64,000 nucleotides of DNA from Mageeibacillus sp. UBA6976 (GCA_002450155.1 DJYO01000032.1:74-64073), one strand, 5' to 3'; shown: positions 15 through 7,050, counted from the stretch's first letter. Program-made: numbers and translations. The notes: a model not told the origin generated them from the sequence alone.

Positions 15-59
15 CTCCTAAGCGGTAGGCCAGCGGTTCGAATCCGCTCACGATCACCA
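15..59 (+). mobile_element. 3' half of tRNA-Arg(CCT); putative att site (attR) of an element lying left of the window
   Basis: CTCCTAA loop, GCGGT, AGGCC, T-arm AGCGG-TTCGAAT-CCGCT, CACGATC-A-CCA. Bases 1-14 cannot form the 5' anticodon stem (ACCGC expected, GGACG seen) or a D-arm. Confidence 0.7.
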
Positions 60-65
60 AATATA

Positions 66-91
66 AAGGGATTAGATAAGTCTGATCCCTT
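66..91. terminator. bidirectional intrinsic terminator hairpin
   Basis: AAGGGATTAGA-TAAG-TCTGATCCCTT between the convergent tRNA fragment and the ORF ending at 101. Confidence 0.75.
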
Positions 92-100
92 ATTTAATTG

Positions 101-1231
101 TCATGATATTACCTCGATCAGCATAAGGACCAGGGATATCAAGACCAGGTAGAACGGCAGGCCTTCAACATATCTAATCTTCGGGACAAAGATAAGACGT
201 CTTCTGATAACGGCAAGAAGGCCTGTGATTATTATGTCTGTAAGTATGATTATGACCGCCCACTTGATTATAGTTACGATCTCAGGGAGTTCAGGAAGCG
301 CCGTCATAAAAGGCAGGACAAAGCAAACTGCTGAGAAAGATACTTCTGCCAAAAGATATCTGCTTCCAAAGATGGATTTACGGTCCCCTCCCCTGCCTGC
401 CAGGATCATGAGCACACCAAGACCTACTGCAATACCTGCCGTCACAGGAAACATAAGATAAGAAGCAACCCTGCCTGTAAAGATAGATATGGCAAGCAGA
501 GCTGCCACTACGCCTGCAAGCACAAGCCCGAGCTGAAGCCTTGTAAATACAAAACGTCTGAGCTCTTCGATATCCGATACCGGGATATTCCAGAATTCAG
601 TAAGGGACTTGGATGTAAGATAAGATCTCTTGCCTGTAAGCTTGTTCCTTAGATAAGCAAAAACCACAAGGAACATAGTTGAAGAAAGGAGCGAAATAAA
701 GACAAATACCCTCTCGAAGAGAAGAGATCCGAAATAACCGAACACGGCTGCAAAAACAGCGATTATAAAGGGTTTATAAACCTCTTCCCAAAGCCCGGCA
801 ATCGTATATTCCTCACTGCCATCTGCTTTGAATCTTCCCAGCATCATAATACCCATCGCCATAGGTACAAAGAACACCGGGGCGGTCCCGGAGCAAAGCC
901 CGTATCTTTGAGACAAAAGGCATAATCCGTAAAACATAAGCTCAAGGATAAACAATGTAAGCGGAGCCAGCTTACGGGGCATAAAGAACCTCATCGACAC
1001 TGCCCAGAGAGTAAGCACTATAAGAGCAGTAAGGACAGGCCACCAAAGGAAAGTATTCTCAAAGTGCCAGATAAGACTGAAAGATACGAGGGTAAATCCC
1101 AGGAATAAAGATGCCCTTGTAGTCATGTACATGGGCGCACTGACATGGAGCGCTGACGGAGCCTGCTTTATATGCTGTCTTCCTTCTTCTGTATCGAAGG
1201 GAGTATTGTATTTCTCGGTAAACAGTCCCAT
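101..1231 (-). CDS. polytopic membrane protein, divergent RnfE-RnfA-like fusion
   Basis: 376 aa with many TM helices. N-half 'MRFFMPRKLAPL...FFVPMAMGIMMLGRF' resembles RnfE; C-end 'GLLAVIRRRLIFVPKIRYVEGLPFYLV' resembles RnfA. Starts 1 nt after the rnfG-like stop. Confidence 0.6.
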   Translation of the reverse strand: MGLFTEKYNTPFDTEEGRQHIKQAPSALHVSAPMYMTTRASLFLGFTLVSFSLIWHFENTFLWWPVLTALIVLTLWAVSMRFFMPRKLAPLTLFILELMFYGLCLLSQRYGLCSGTAPVFFVPMAMGIMMLGRFKADGSEEYTIAGLWEEVYKPFIIAVFAAVFGYFGSLLFERVFVFISLLSSTMFLVVFAYLRNKLTGKRSYLTSKSLTEFWNIPVSDIEELRRFVFTRLQLGLVLAGVVAALLAISIFTGRVASYLMFPVTAGIAVGLGVLMILAGRGGDRKSIFGSRYLLAEVSFSAVCFVLPFMTALPELPEIVTIIKWAVIIILTDIIITGLLAVIRRRLIFVPKIRYVEGLPFYLVLISLVLMLIEVIS

Positions 1232-1232
1232 A

Positions 1233-2588
1233 TCACACCAACCAGTTAAGATAATCCTTGAGGAATTTGTAGCAGGTATTGCATATATGAACTACCTGTC
1301 TCGTCTCATCAAAAGCGTTGTTTACAGGAGTTATCCTGGTAACGATCTCAGACATCGGCAGATCATCAATACTGTCCGTAAGTATCTGGTCAGACTCCCT
1401 GCCCGTATTGATTATTCCGTCTTCACTTCCGTCAGGAGAAAGATCCTGTTCAACATATGGTGTAGGCGAAGGCAGCGCCGGGTCATTTGCCTCATTTCCT
1501 GAAGGCTGTTCGTTGGTTGCGATCTGTCTTATGCTAAGATAGCCGATCGCCTCTGCCTCTCCGTCTTCGTCGGGATCACCATATACCGTATAGACCTCGG
1601 GATAATCCTTGAATGAGAATACTATAAACCCGTCATCGTTAAGATATCCTAAAGTCTCGCTGTCAGCACCCAGAAGCTCTGTAAGGATCTCATCTATTGC
1701 CTTGTAGTACCTGTACTTATTGAAACCATATCTTGCATTCTCGATACACTCATTGGACAGTTGTACAAAAGCGGAGATATTGCATGTAACGCCTTCTATG
1801 ATCTCTGTAGTGCCGTCTGACTTCATGGCAAGTTTCTCCGGATCCTGCCACTCGAGCAGAGCATGGCAGACATTGTAAGACTGGGTGGCCCAGTCAAGAC
1901 CGGAAACTTCGTATGCACCTGATAAGGAAGCGGCGCTTCTGTTCTCCGTGGTAGGATCCATATTGAATGCATCCCATTTGACCTTGGTAATGACACCGCC
2001 CTCGATTTCGATCTCAACGTAGTCGATGTAGCCTAATTTGTCATCTACATATTCCTGAGCATAGTAAGTACCGTCTATAAGGTCAGTTGTCACCGGCTCT
2101 TCGGCGTCATCTATCACTGTATCTGCAGGCTCTTCTTCTGCAAAAGCAATGGGGATGGGCTTACCTATAAGCCTGTTCTGTATTGACTGCAATACAAGAT
2201 CCGTGATGGTATATGGGTTATCCGTATCGTTTAAATACCTGATACCCGTTATGCTGGCATTCTCATAGTCAATGCCGACCAGCATATGAAGCTGCCTTCC
2301 GTCAGGGCTGGTGGTTATGTCGACAACATAGCCCACAGCGGCTCCGTCTTTGTCATAGCCCATAAACACTGAATTGATGTCTGGATAGTCCTTGAGCACA
2401 GAAGTATTAAGTGGTTCGTAGCTGTCAGCTGTAAGGACAGATGAGAATCTGGCTATATATTCGTCCTGCTTACGTGCAGCCTGATTGCCGGAGGACAGGA
2501 AGAAACCGCCGATTACAACAAATACGGCCAGGAGAAGCAGTCCTAACCCCTCTAAAAGGAATATCCTCAGCTGAGCACGGGTCATCAT
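1233..2588 (-). CDS. elongated RnfG-like / FMN-binding domain membrane-anchored protein
   Basis: Start reassigned to ATG 2588 (GGGAGG RBS, ATGA overlap with rnfD stop). N-terminal TM helix, RnfG-like segment (MLVGIDYENASITGIRYL), a second FMN_bind-like domain (DGTYYA...YVEIEIEGGVITKVKWD), acidic tail. Confidence 0.65.
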   Translation of the reverse strand: MMTRAQLRIFLLEGLGLLLLAVFVVIGGFFLSSGNQAARKQDEYIARFSSVLTADSYEPLNTSVLKDYPDINSVFMGYDKDGAAVGYVVDITTSPDGRQLHMLVGIDYENASITGIRYLNDTDNPYTITDLVLQSIQNRLIGKPIPIAFAEEEPADTVIDDAEEPVTTDLIDGTYYAQEYVDDKLGYIDYVEIEIEGGVITKVKWDAFNMDPTTENRSAASLSGAYEVSGLDWATQSYNVCHALLEWQDPEKLAMKSDGTTEIIEGVTCNISAFVQLSNECIENARYGFNKYRYYKAIDEILTELLGADSETLGYLNDDGFIVFSFKDYPEVYTVYGDPDEDGEAEAIGYLSIRQIATNEQPSGNEANDPALPSPTPYVEQDLSPDGSEDGIINTGRESDQILTDSIDDLPMSEIVTRITPVNNAFDETRQVVHICNTCYKFLKDYLNWLV

Positions 2589-3547
2589 AAGACATCCACC
2601 TCCCTTGAGCGGCGGTTGCGGCGGGATATTGTCTTGGCAAAGTAGTCTATAACAAAGGACATATAGTTTACAGTAAGTACAGGGGCAAGGAGCGCTATAC
2701 ATATCCCGGTCCCGTTAATTATCAAGATCACGGTAAGTACAGCGCAGACAAAGCCTGCAAAGGCTCCTGCGGCAAATCTTGAAGGCATGGTAGTCAGGTC
2801 GCCCAGCATAAAGACTGCAACGAATACAACTCCTGAAGACATGAGGAATACTAAGAGTTCTCCGTCAGGTACAAAGATACGGTATAAAGCTGTCACCGAG
2901 ATCAGGTAGGATATGGGGGCATAGAGTCTCATCGAACCTTTGATGACCATGAATACGGCGCCTAGAAGAATAGTCAGAACGCAGGCAGTACCGATAAAGC
3001 TCGCATAATTACCGCCTAAGAGCTCAAGAAATGAAAGCCTGGAATAATCGGGAGCCTCCGCGGCCTTGGGAGACATGGATATGAGGCTCGCTACATCGAA
3101 CCATCTCTCCCTTCCGCCCTCGGCAAAACCGGACATATAGGAAGGATACAGAACTTCGACGATAAGCCTTGCGCCTGCTGCAGGATTAAGGATATTGCTT
3201 CCCGCACCGCCAAAGAGCTGCTTTATAACTACAGAGCCGAATAAAACTCCGGCCAGGACCACGATAAGAGGTGTATCCGGCGGAAGCATCAGGGCAAATA
3301 TGATCCCTGATGCAATAGAACTCAAGTCAAAATAATCCTTATCGTTATGGATATGAACTAACCTGGTAAATCCTATATCGGATAAGGAGAACATTATGGC
3401 AGAGAAGAGGATAAGCACCATGGCTCTAAGGCCATAGTAGAATATCGAATAGAACACACAAGGCAGCAGGGATACTGTTATCGTAAGGTAGATATAAGGT
3501 GCATTCTTGTATGTATGGATAAAAGGGGCAAGAGATCTGTCACTCAT
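2585..3547 (-). CDS. rnfD: RnfD/NqrB family membrane subunit (divergent)
   Basis: KQLFGGAGSNILNPAAGAR and FMLGDLTTMP motifs; ATGA overlap with rnfC. Confidence 0.85.
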   Translation of the reverse strand: MSDRSLAPFIHTYKNAPYIYLTITVSLLPCVFYSIFYYGLRAMVLILFSAIMFSLSDIGFTRLVHIHNDKDYFDLSSIASGIIFALMLPPDTPLIVVLAGVLFGSVVIKQLFGGAGSNILNPAAGARLIVEVLYPSYMSGFAEGGRERWFDVASLISMSPKAAEAPDYSRLSFLELLGGNYASFIGTACVLTILLGAVFMVIKGSMRLYAPISYLISVTALYRIFVPDGELLVFLMSSGVVFVAVFMLGDLTTMPSRFAAGAFAGFVCAVLTVILIINGTGICIALLAPVLTVNYMSFVIDYFAKTISRRNRRSREVDVL

Positions 3548-5064
3548 ACGCTCTTACCTCCGTCAAAGGGCAATATTATGGAATCAGGATCAGTCTCGTC
3601 CCTGGAATCTTCCTTATCCGGGAATTCCTCCAAAAGCGATGCCTGCCCTACCATGGCTGCCTCAACTCCTGCTTCTTCTCCGGGTTCTTCGTCTGTGTTA
3701 TGCAAAAGCGAATTGACCTCAATGATCCTTCCCTCATTTGCAAATCTTGCTATGGAAGTTGCAAGGTTTATTCCTGCAGGACAGATATAAGAGCAGCTTC
3801 CACAGGATATACAGTCTCTTGCGCCTTCCTCGGCAGCCTTCTGAGTTAGGCCTTGTACCAGCATCTCGTATACGATATTGGGAGACAGCCCCATAGGGCA
3901 GCACTCAGAGCAAAGACCGCAATGGATACATGGCGTTGTAGGAATCTCGGTCTTGCGGACTATTGAGATTACCGATGTCATCTTTATGATAGGAGTATTC
4001 TCCGGGTCTTCTATCTCTATACCGGTGAGACAGTTGCCCCAGATAACCCTGCTCTCAGTCTTGGTAGATTCATATGCACTGGTAAGGACTTCTGACACCG
4101 GGGTTCCTATGGGAACAAGCATATTATGTCCGCCGGATTCGTTACCCGAGACGGAGATTATCCTGTTCATCATGGGTATGTTATCTGATAAAGCCTCCCA
4201 GCAGGCAAGCATCGTGGAACAGTTAAACAGGACTGCGCCGCAAGTCTGCTCAAGAGTATCACTCATCTCCAGCTGTTTACCGTATAAAGCCTTGGCAACA
4301 AGTCTGTAGTAACCCTGGGGAAAACGCTCACGGAACAATACAACTTCAAGCTTAAGATCCTTGAAGGAGTCCTTTGCCTTCCTGATAGAATTCTCAAGTG
4401 CAGAGCGCTCCGTCTTGCGGCCTAAGGATATAAGGAATCTGACTCTGGTGGCACCGCAGGCTCTGGCACAGGCCAAAGCTCCGAGGACTACATAGTCAGG
4501 GTATTCTACTATAGCCATTAGATCACAGGTCGAATAGGGCTCGCTCTGAAGGCAGTTTACGAGCAGCTCGTTAACTGCATAGTTCCTTGCCCTGTTAAGC
4601 TTGGCATAGGTAGGTATGCCCTCACCGCCCATACCGCATATACCTGCATCTCTTATAACACCGATAGTCTGTTGGGCTGAAAGATCAATGCTCCCTCTGG
4701 ATTTAAGCGAATCAAGCCTGGTCCTCTTCATGTCGTTGTTTATAAATACGGCAGGGGTCTTAATGCCGTTTGGAAGAGTAATGTCTCTTATATCCGTTAC
4801 TCTGCCCGATATTCCTGTGTGCACCGGAGATGAGAAAGACTTTGAATAAGGGATGCCTACGCACTGCCCTACCTTGACAAGATCGCCTTCCTTTACTGTG
4901 GGTACTGCAGGGACGCCATAGTGCATCTTCATGGGGAGAATAACTCTTGAAGGATTTATCTGCTCGAGCATTATCTCCCTGACAAAAGGAGAACGTTTTG
5001 AAAAATTCAAAACGTCCCCTGAAAAAATACCCTTATAAAACGAATGGATCTTGCGTCCTGCCAC
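3544..5064 (-). CDS. rnfC: RnfC/RsxC family subunit (divergent)
   Basis: PTVKEGDLVKVGQ, PVHTGISGRV, AGICGMGGEGIPT, EPY, and two CxxCxxCxxxCP ferredoxin motifs. Confidence 0.85.
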   Translation of the reverse strand: MAGRKIHSFYKGIFSGDVLNFSKRSPFVREIMLEQINPSRVILPMKMHYGVPAVPTVKEGDLVKVGQCVGIPYSKSFSSPVHTGISGRVTDIRDITLPNGIKTPAVFINNDMKRTRLDSLKSRGSIDLSAQQTIGVIRDAGICGMGGEGIPTYAKLNRARNYAVNELLVNCLQSEPYSTCDLMAIVEYPDYVVLGALACARACGATRVRFLISLGRKTERSALENSIRKAKDSFKDLKLEVVLFRERFPQGYYRLVAKALYGKQLEMSDTLEQTCGAVLFNCSTMLACWEALSDNIPMMNRIISVSGNESGGHNMLVPIGTPVSEVLTSAYESTKTESRVIWGNCLTGIEIEDPENTPIIKMTSVISIVRKTEIPTTPCIHCGLCSECCPMGLSPNIVYEMLVQGLTQKAAEEGARDCISCGSCSYICPAGINLATSIARFANEGRIIEVNSLLHNTDEEPGEEAGVEAAMVGQASLLEEFPDKEDSRDETDPDSIILPFDGGKSV

Positions 5065-5081: not shown

Positions 5082-6164
5082 TTAGTCGGTGTAACCTTCC
5101 AGTTTCTTGGATCCTGAAGATCTGGACAGTTTCCTTATGGCCTTGGCCTCGATCTGTCTGATACGCTCTCTTGTAACGCCTAACTTCTTACCGACCTGCT
5201 CAAGTGTCATGGGCACGCCGTCCTTAAGACCGAATCTGAGCTCAATAACCTTACGCTCACGGTCTGTAAGTGTATTGAGAGCCTTGATGAGATCTTCCTT
5301 AAGGAGATTTCTTGCAACTTCTTCGTCAGGAGATGCGAGTTCATCATTGGAGATAAAGTCGACTAAATGGGAGTCCTCCTCTTCGCCTACAGGCTTATCA
5401 ATGGAGATAGGATCCTGAGATATCTTCTGGATCTCACGGATCTTGGCAGGCTCCATGTTCATGGCCTCTGCCAGCTCCTCAGTAGTAGGTTCTCTGCCGA
5501 GATCCTGAACAAGCTGTCTCTGTACTCTGGTGAGCTTGTTAATGGTCTCTACCATATGTACAGGGATCCTGATGGTCCTGGCCTGGTCAGCTATAGCTCT
5601 TGTAATAGCCTGTCTGATCCACCATGTTGCATATGTAGAGAACTTAAATCCTTTGGTGTAATCGAACTTATCAACTGCCTTGATAAGACCGATATTACCT
5701 TCCTGAATAAGATCAAGAAGGGACAGGCCACGGTTCATGTACTTTTTTGCGATGGAGACAACCAGTCTTAGGTTGGAGTTGATAAGCGTCTCCTTGGCAT
5801 CCTCGTCGCCCTCAGCCATACGCTGTGCAATCTCGCGCTCCTCATCTGCCTTGAGCAGCTCGATCTTACCGATCTCCTTAAGATACATCTTGACCGAGTC
5901 ATCAACTACGTTAGCATCATCTGTGCTCTCTTCAATATCTGCATCTGTGGGAACGTCATCGTCGTCGATCACGATATCCATCTCCACTTCAGGCTCGCTT
6001 ATAACGATATTGACCTTCTCCAGTTCTGCTCTGAGATTGAGCATATCGTCCGGGCCCATCTTGTAATTATCTGTGATGGATTCGAGCTCTGCGTCTGTAA
6101 GAGTCTTACCGTTCTTCTCTGCAAGCTTCTGTGCTGCCGCTATTGCCTTCTCAAAATCTGTCAT
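5082..6164 (-). CDS. rpoD: primary RNA polymerase sigma factor SigA/RpoD
   Basis: [65 protein letters not shown]. Confidence 0.97.
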
Positions 6165-6908: not shown

Positions 6909-7050
6909 CTAAAACTGTCCTTTATTATAATATAGCTGCTACAAATAGGCATAATTGTACTTATAGCAAATGTCAAGTATACTCGCCTGATCAGGTCTTG
7001 TCAACTTCCCTTTAGTTTGAATTATCCAATCTTTATCCTATAATACTCAC

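Follow-up and report, generated by a model that had tools for sequence, protein, structure and literature searches.

The Rnf complex is a central energy-conserving enzyme of anaerobes. In its canonical form (RnfABCDGE) it is a ferredoxin:NAD+ oxidoreductase coupled to Na+/H+ transport, in which ferredoxin enters at RnfB, RnfD carries a threonine (..S/T-x-A-T-P-L..) flavinylated by ApbE, RnfG has its SGAT acceptor where the C-terminal helix begins, and cysteines of RnfA and RnfE hold a [2Fe-2S] cluster in the membrane. In the structure of the Clostridium tetanomorphum complex (PDB 7ZC6), the N-terminal arm of RnfD is buried in RnfC, the pocket for flavin mononucleotide (FMN) on RnfD is lined by the Glu of an IGE motif and by Asn90, and an Asn and an Asp flank riboflavin (PMC9588780). 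NqrA is an RnfC-like peripheral subunit, seated on a D/B-type membrane subunit, in which FMN binding has been lost (PMC9588780). Partial ‘NQR/RNF-like’ systems have been interpreted as one-way conduits from NAD(P)H to the outside of the cell, with a D-like subunit that has no flavinylation site and is presumed to bind its flavin non-covalently; in these systems an NqrB/RnfD domain is fused to an NqrF-type PF00175 domain, in clusters with ApbE and FMN_bind genes, mainly in Actinobacteria and the candidate phyla radiation (PMC8238504; bioRxiv 10.1101/2024.03.13.584918). RnfG proteins with extra FMN-binding domains have also been described (PMC8238504). The locus analysed here lies at one end of a 64,000-nt stretch from Mageeibacillus sp. 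UBA6976 (GCA_002450155.1, DJYO01000032.1:74-64073; referred to as the window), and consists of four adjoining genes, here called C, D, G and X, the first three related to rnfC, rnfD and rnfG and the last, encoding a polytopic membrane protein, in the position of rnfE-rnfA.

C, D, G and X form a stand-alone Rnf-derived membrane module, composed of three Rnf-like subunits and a lineage-specific protein with 11 transmembrane (TM) helices, and this module is the only Rnf relative left in the genus. It cannot be a canonical ferredoxin:NAD+ ion pump, because proteins of the RnfA/E family, RnfB, ApbE and FMN_bind matches are all missing from the genome. Profile searches of the host genome (2.18 Mb, 98% complete; family Saccharofermentans-like by best protein matches) found no gene of the RnfA/E family (PF02508) and a single one of the RnfD family, and RnfA/E was found in 0/61 genomes of the window's genus. 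Searches of the host genome by tblastn with RnfA, RnfE and RnfG returned nothing, and those with three RnfB proteins from the same order returned only generic 4Fe-4S ferredoxin stretches, with no N-terminal RnfB domain. ApbE (PF02424) is absent from the host genome and, in one sample, from all 61 genomes of the genus; in a second sample it was present in 3 of ~79 genus genomes, versus 42/42 genomes of sister genera. The three ApbE-bearing genus genomes (one with its ApbE gene at G021:C1:472827-473642) lack RnfA/E. A first-pass annotation of the window had proposed a conserved membrane complex, without rnfB in its operon, that may no longer act as a ferredoxin:NAD pump, and on both points these results agree with it, the search for a remote rnfB included; a second, canonical rnf cluster in the host genome, which it had asked about, was not found.

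The C-D-G-X module is an old, deep paralogue that once coexisted with true Rnf and is under purifying selection, while true Rnf and, almost always, ApbE were later lost from the window's genus. Coexistence of the module with canonical Rnf in sister genera, and a separate RnfC clade, place the origin of the paralogue before the loss of Rnf: in a maximum-likelihood RnfC tree the sigA-linked sequences form one clade (98/99) and the canonical sequences of three families another (100/99). Of the genera in the order, 40/44 have RnfA/E, among them all those of the window's family apart from its own, and canonical rnfCDGEAB in sister genera is a separate locus; a position of these canonical operons beside sigA was considered and ruled out, as no sigA lies within 5 kb of them. 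The profile built from G detects the protein in 55/55 sampled genomes of the family and, elsewhere in the order, in only four genomes, all from one genus of a neighbouring family. Gene order (zinc-ribbon gene, sigA, C, D, G, X) is the same in 20/20 same-genus and 9/9 sister-genus loci, the fourth module gene in the nine sister-genus loci encoding a membrane protein of 375-390 aa. Coupling of C to D is conserved, with an overlap of 4 nt (-4) in 21/21 genus loci (the window and 20 other genomes), and reading frames are intact in 30/30 loci examined. The ratio of non-synonymous to synonymous substitution (dN/dS), where calculable, is 0.04-0.3 for all four genes, with saturated synonymous differences (pS 0.62-0.81) and pN of 0.05-0.38. 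The description of the complex as degenerate does not suit a separate, deep paralogue that coexists with complete rnfCDGEAB and ApbE in sister genera; the purifying selection that had been suggested as a check is present in each gene, and the frameshifted orthologues expected of decay were not seen in any of the 30 loci.

C scores 274 bits on the NCBIfam rnfC model TIGR01945 (cut-off 246), and its Pfam domains comprise the RnfC_N barrel, the NuoF-like Complex1_51K domain (PF01512), PF13375 and Fer4 ferredoxin motifs. Matches to RnfC of the solved Rnf complexes range from E 1e-54 to 1e-46 (PDB 7zc6_C, E 9e-54). Both CxxCxxCxxxCP motifs are present, and all eight Fe-S cysteines are invariant in 30 paralogous plus canonical sequences. 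The flavin/NAD signature, which reads GMGGEGIPT, LQSEPY and FPQGYYRL in the window, differs from the canonical one in a regular way: GGA[TAG]FP is replaced by GGEG[IVY]P, AECEPY by xQSEP[YF] and YPQGAEK by FPQG[YC]xx, each form being conserved within the paralogue. This conserved signature (GGEG[IVY]P/QSEP/FPQG[YC]) argues for a ligand site that has been retained and not lost. As judged from these similarities C is an RnfC subunit, which may bind FMN and NADH at a site in which the glycine loop and the ECEP and YPQGAEK motifs have been replaced. C also carries a genus-specific C-terminal tail ending in LPF(E/D)GGK.

D matches PF03116 at 167 bits and the rnfD model TIGR01946 at 107 bits, below the cut-off of 207, and aligns with RnfD of known structure (PDB 9eri_D and 7zc6_D) at E ~1e-20. 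PF23022 gives a sub-threshold match (E 0.0034), and no Pfam match to the NqrF-type NAD-binding domain PF00175 was found. Sites were judged against ten canonical RnfD proteins of the same order (which carry VSSATP) and counted in 21 genus members. The column of the flavinylated Thr holds T in 1/21 and the VSSATP loop has no counterpart; of the residues that line the FMN pocket, both the Glu of IGE and the equivalent of Asn90 are found in 0/21. The Asn and Asp of the riboflavin pocket are kept in 15/21 (Asn121 in the window) and 18/21 members, respectively, and the RnfC-docking N-terminal arm (APFIHT) is among the best-conserved parts of the protein. D has thus lost the covalent-FMN pocket and mostly retained the riboflavin-pocket Asn and Asp. 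Ser154 was considered as a flavinylation site at a shifted position, since it pairs with Thr156 of Acetobacterium woodii, in one pairwise alignment only; it was ruled out, being unconserved (G or P in some sequences), not preceded by G-A, and unaligned family-wide.

G matches no Pfam family, and FMN_bind (PF04205) scores neither G nor anything else in the genome. An AlphaFold2 (AF2) model of G (mean predicted local distance difference test score, pLDDT, 74.6) was compared with PDB structures by Foldseek, with matches to RnfG of C. tetanomorphum (7zc6_G, E 2e-5, prob 1.0), to RnfG 8rb9_G and 8ahx_G (the latter from Azotobacter vinelandii; prob 1.0) and to NqrC (8evu_C, prob 0.97), so that the modelled fold is that of a true RnfG/NqrC protein. 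From the N-terminus, the model consists of a TM helix, an RnfG beta-domain (~40-150), an acidic linker, an inserted PplA-like domain of FMN_bind type (~168-290, with the motif TEIIEGVT), an alpha/beta region, a disordered linker and a C-terminal helix (426-450) that is the counterpart of the RnfG helix without SGAT. In homologues from the neighbouring family this helix opens with DAVSGATVTS; in the window's family the residues are variable, with F in the window, and by this alignment the RnfG-type SGAT acceptor is lost in G.

By Foldseek, the middle domain of G resembles two structural-genomics proteins, 2kzx (E 1.5e-6) and 3o6u (~1e-4). It aligns end to end with stand-alone lipoproteins of 155-190 aa (profile E 1e-22 to 1e-10), whose genes lie beside those for a type-II NADH dehydrogenase (Ndh2) with a DoxD/DoxX tail, ApbE and a polyprenyl synthase, i.e. 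in loci for flavin-based extracellular electron transfer (EET). Lipoproteins of the PplA type have a [S/T]GA[S/T]-like acceptor that is flavinylated by a cognate ApbE/FmnB. The acceptor motif of these lipoproteins, TD(A/T)I(A/T/S)G(V/A)(T/S), aligns with TEIIEGVT of G, and the threonine of G-V-T (Thr268) is invariant in the window's genus, which lacks ApbE almost throughout. The G profile also matches canonical RnfG open reading frames. An extracytoplasmic disulfide between Cys241 and Cys281 was rejected as a family-wide feature of G, the first Cys being absent in sister genera.

X has no Pfam or NCBIfam match. Its AF2 model (pLDDT 81.8, predicted TM score 0.82) has no significant Foldseek match in the PDB (best E 0.8; RnfA at rank 50, E 9). 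A hidden Markov model (HMM) of the X family, searched against 1.84e9 representative proteins, recovered 48 clusters, all of its own kind and in the same length class, with no RnfA/E (PF02508) or NqrD/E protein among the matches. The protein diverges fast: identity within the genus is 22-49%, and the sister-genus homologue in the same position is barely detectable (E 3e-8 to 2e-5). The cytoplasmic TPFD N-terminus, an LTEFW-IP loop and RRRLIF...DGLPF are all conserved, but there is no invariant cysteine and no conserved Cys pair for a [2Fe-2S] cluster.

Profile-profile comparison (hhalign) of X, as the whole protein and as halves, with alignments of RnfA and of RnfE sequences from the same order gave a signal only for the C-terminal part (last 57-62 columns, corresponding to the last two helices) against RnfA (P 6e-4 to 3e-3, probability 10-29%), pairing RRRLIF..k.rY.DGLPf.L of X with GVR.R....P..lkGlPi.LI of RnfA; controls gave P 0.1-0.8 and reversed controls 0.4-0.8. 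No signal was obtained for the N-terminal half against RnfE or RnfA (P > 0.2), and an internal repeat between the two halves of X is not convincing (P 0.02). The 11 TM helices in the model would fit an RnfE (6 TM) fused to an RnfA minus its first helix, but the likeness of the last helices to RnfA is marginal and an RnfE/A fusion is unproven; in either case the iron-sulfur centre of RnfA/E is absent, because X has no invariant cysteine. The ‘canonical C-D-G-E-A order’ assigned at first pass presumes such a fusion as the fourth gene, which no HMM or fold search confirms. The accompanying statement that all cofactor motifs are altered applies to the FMN Thr and pocket of D and to SGAT of G, which are gone, and not to the eight Fe-S cysteines of C, the riboflavin Asn/Asp of D or the G-V-T motif, which are kept.

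A related C-D-G cluster without sigA linkage is present in the neighbouring family, in two of the loci examined (L090, G170:C1; L091, G139:C106). G of these loci contains two PplA-like domains and keeps the DAVSGATVTS acceptor intact at its C-terminal end, the FMN loop of D is deleted to a still greater extent, and the genomes also carry canonical RnfA/E. This cluster could represent a version of the module that is flavinylated and active in redox reactions.

As the reading that we favour, although only tentatively, C-D-G-X could be a non-pumping transmembrane electron wire with non-covalent flavins, representing the NADH-side half of Rnf. C would oxidise a cytoplasmic reductant at its NuoF-like site, which is remodelled yet conserved, and its two [4Fe-4S] clusters would pass the electrons on to D, where a flavin would sit non-covalently in the riboflavin pocket that has been retained. 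From there they would leave to the extracytoplasmic G, whose RnfG fold and PplA-like domain would hold or reduce flavin. Any flavin on G would be non-covalent, since covalent attachment is impossible without ApbE. The role of X would be to substitute for RnfA/E in stabilising or gating the part within the membrane, and because X has no [2Fe-2S] cluster there would be neither a return path nor an entry for ferredoxin. The proposal follows the published logic for partial NQR/RNF-like systems (PMC8238504; bioRxiv 10.1101/2024.03.13.584918), and draws support from the eight invariant Fe-S cysteines and the signature of C, the arm and riboflavin-pocket Asn/Asp of D, the RnfG fold of G, the homology of its insert to lipoproteins of EET loci and the related C-D-G variant that still has DAVSGATVTS.

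Several observations weigh against an electron wire. Most sister genera, which carry ApbE, have K, E, D or Y in place of Thr268 of G; as the threonine persists in the genus without ApbE but not in most of those with it, we read this residue as probably structural and not as a flavin anchor. The riboflavin pocket of D tolerates substitution (of Asn in 6/21 and of Asp in 3/21 members), and the A-to-E and E-to-Q changes in the flavin/NAD loop of C may abolish FMN binding, by analogy with the cofactor-free NqrA. Without the FMN of D and G, the gap between the riboflavin pocket and the outer face would be too long for tunnelling unless non-covalent flavins fill it, and the cofactors of the complex are all predicted. 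No acceptor gene is linked to the module, and a respiratory role does not explain the tight linkage to sigA.

That linkage, which is invariant and extends to the zinc-ribbon membrane protein, fits a redox-inert or sensory scaffold, in which D, G and X would carry no electrons, the complex would act in the envelope or in regulation in a way linked to expression of sigA, and C would use its Fe-S clusters at most to sense redox state or oxygen. Parallels would be NqrA, an RnfC homologue devoid of cofactors, and Rsx, whose client is a transcription factor. Loss of both the FMN pocket of D and SGAT of G together with the absence of ApbE, the loose conservation of canonical cofactor and ion-site residues in D and the dispensability of the PplA-type threonine in sister genera are all as expected of such a scaffold, and the genus-specific LPFEGGK tail of C and TPFD N-terminus of X resemble protein-docking elements. 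However, it would be costly for a scaffold to maintain the eight Fe-S cysteines of C and its nucleotide/flavin-site signature, which is distinct yet under strict conservation; the riboflavin-pocket Asn and Asp are mostly kept, and no regulator domain is present. We regard a scaffold, the main rival reading, as somewhat unlikely.

A more specific proposal, which we consider unlikely, is that the module represents an undescribed class of Rnf descendant: a four-subunit C-D-G-X complex without covalent flavins or the RnfA/E centre, in which X would be a cofactor-stripped RnfE-RnfA remnant (6 + 5 TM) and the whole would perform a housekeeping task co-regulated with sigA, as a reporter of redox state or an outlet for NAD(P)H/ferredoxin electrons to the cell surface. 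If this were so, the task would be important enough for the module to be the sole Rnf relative kept when the genus dropped the pump.

An ion-translocating pump of Rnf type is quite improbable. Here X would be a fused, extremely diverged RnfE-RnfA (6 + 5 TM), with some other ferredoxin-like protein standing in for RnfB. The gene for X lies where rnfE-rnfA would be, its product is about as long as E plus A, and an N-in/C-out topology with 11 TM helices, taken from the secondary structure of the model, would fit RnfE (6 TM) plus RnfA minus TM1; the hhalign alignment covers RnfA residues 34-195, with P for the C-terminal part well below that of the controls (6e-4 to 3e-3 versus 0.1-0.8), and RnfA (8ahx_A) has the lowest root-mean-square deviation in the Foldseek list, though not significantly. 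Yet even the family HMM gave no PF02508 signal against 1.84e9 proteins, the N-terminal half of X is unlike RnfE, the Cys pair for [2Fe-2S] is missing, the genome has no RnfB N-domain, and covalent flavins are absent. In sister genera the module occurs in addition to a normal Rnf, and is therefore not redundant with that pump. Simple decay, in which the module would be what remains of the Rnf that the genus has lost and would be turning into pseudogenes, is scarcely credible, since the missing canonical cofactor motifs and the absence of rnfA, rnfE, rnfB and apbE from the genome are outweighed by intact frames in 30 loci, conserved translational coupling and dN/dS of 0.04-0.3, and a decayed copy of a sole Rnf is ruled out by the complete rnfCDGEAB of sister genera, the separate deep clade and dN/dS well below 1.

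In the window the module follows a zinc-ribbon gene and sigA, all six genes being co-directional on the minus strand by open reading frame calling (Table 1). The coupling noted at first pass, i.e. four genes joined by ATGA overlaps and a 1-nt gap and followed by a terminator, was confirmed by direct reading of the sequence (ATGA at 3544-3547 between C and D and at 2585-2588 between D and G, with the single nucleotide 1232 between G and X), and the pattern recurs in 20 other genomes of the genus. The start codon of C is 17 nt past the sigA stop codon and has its own GGGAG ribosome-binding site; given this position, the transcription unit would begin before C. It most likely comprises the zinc-ribbon gene, sigA, C, D, G and X and starts from the promoter candidate at 7004-6976, co-transcription of sigA with C-D-G-X being inferred from gene spacing only. 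That candidate is the best promoter consensus match of the region, where the count of promoter-like sites is no higher than in shuffled sequence. SigA is 57-88% identical across the family, and C is always the next gene. The zinc-ribbon gene, whose product has no significant Pfam match, lies directly upstream of sigA in 20/20 same-genus and 9/9 sister-genus loci, and its product may be functionally part of the module, given a linkage to sigA as firm as that of the Rnf-like genes.

Table 1 Coordinates of the sigA-linked C-D-G-X locus in the window, in order of transcription.
Feature	Position	Strand	Description and evidence
Operon promoter candidate (TTGACA, 17 nt, TATACT)	6976..7004	-	Upstream of zinc-ribbon gene; consensus 11/12
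Zinc-ribbon gene, 241 aa	6183..6908	-	N-terminal CxxC...CxxC zinc ribbon and one TM segment
sigA, primary sigma factor (SigA/RpoD type)	5082..6164	-	Sigma70 regions 1.2, 2, 3 and 4 (Pfam)
C, RnfC paralogue, 506 aa, GTG start	3544..5064	-	TIGR01945, PF01512, PF13375, Fer4 families
D, RnfD/NqrB-family membrane subunit, 320 aa	2585..3547	-	PF03116
G, rebuilt RnfG, 451 aa	1233..2588	-	AF2 model and Foldseek
X, polytopic membrane protein, 376 aa, ~11 TM helices	101..1231	-	AF2 model; lineage-restricted
Hairpin terminator closing the operon	66..91		11-pair stem with 4 GC pairs and T-rich tail; after X stop codon

A hairpin of 14 pairs with a T-rich tract (4989-5019, minus strand) lies inside the 5′ coding end of C (codons ~15-25), 45 nt past the sigA-C junction. 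It is possibly due to chance (terminator-like sites, 9 versus 5.1 +/- 2.5 in shuffled sequences), or could be an internal attenuator that splits expression of sigA from that of C-D-G-X. In two genomes of the genus (L028, G025:C21; L036, G153:C8) a tandem, second sigA-like copy is found directly upstream of sigA-C-D-G-X.

Beyond X, the terminator at 66-91 is common to the operon and a convergent tRNA fragment. The fragment (window 15-59, plus strand; with contig C30, positions 1-132) is a tRNA-like stretch corresponding to the 3′ half of tRNA-Arg(CCT) only, which ARAGORN does not call as a tRNA; another contig (C23, positions 2715-2791) carries a complete tRNA-Arg(CCT) whose 3′ half is identical to it. 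A whole tRNA-Arg(CCT) is located just downstream of X, in the same direction, in 3/6 related loci scanned, while the fragment in the window is inverted. This arrangement is consistent with an integration event or a rearrangement that broke the gene within its anticodon loop.

Annotation matches to rnfC and rnfD are routinely taken to mean that Rnf is present. In this rumen genus they mark a different, conserved machine, and metabolic reconstructions of these abundant fibre-degrading rumen Clostridia would thus be wrong on ferredoxin re-oxidation and ion-motive force. The module is a natural experiment, an RnfC-RnfD-RnfG half-complex kept under strong selection after loss of every covalent-flavin site, and provides a test case for an RnfD riboflavin site and RnfG fold working with non-covalent flavins, or for the re-use of Rnf scaffolds in non-redox tasks. 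So constant a linkage to sigA is unusual, and could hint at a role in regulation or housekeeping.

Compared with canonical Rnf (RnfCDGEAB; 7ZC6 of C. tetanomorphum, 9ERI of A. woodii and 8AHX of A. vinelandii), C, D and G are homologous by sequence and fold, and the C-D-G order, both [4Fe-4S] motifs, the RnfC-docking arm of D and the riboflavin-pocket Asn and Asp are shared. However, the module has no RnfA/E (PF02508), RnfB or ApbE, its D has neither the FMN-Thr nor the Glu and Asn of the pocket, its G has a PplA-like insert and no SGAT, and C has an altered signature in its flavin/NAD loop; in place of E and A there is an 11-TM protein of a new kind, and the whole is a separate, sigA-linked paralogue. 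With the partial NQR/RNF-like systems it has in common the concept of keeping one of the two transmembrane electron paths, the combination of a D-like membrane subunit with a G-like outer subunit, and the lack of the flavinylation site on the D-like subunit. It differs from them in having a separate RnfC, no PF00175 on D, no ApbE or FMN_bind in the cluster or the genome, a G without the canonical acceptor site and the extra membrane protein X. The middle domain of G aligns with PplA-type EET lipoproteins from end to end, including the position of the acceptor motif, but is inserted within an RnfG fold, in a genome without ApbE; its Thr is unconserved in sister genera and FMN_bind does not score it. 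NqrA has lost its Fe-S clusters as well, while C keeps the eight cysteines and scores as rnfC and not as nqrA. Literature searches yielded no account of this module. Partial systems derived from Rnf, and RnfG proteins with several domains, are known already; no description was found of the combination of a separate C-D-G paralogue without a covalent-flavin site or ApbE, a lineage-specific 11-TM partner and a fixed linkage to sigA, in a module that is the sole Rnf relative of its genus.

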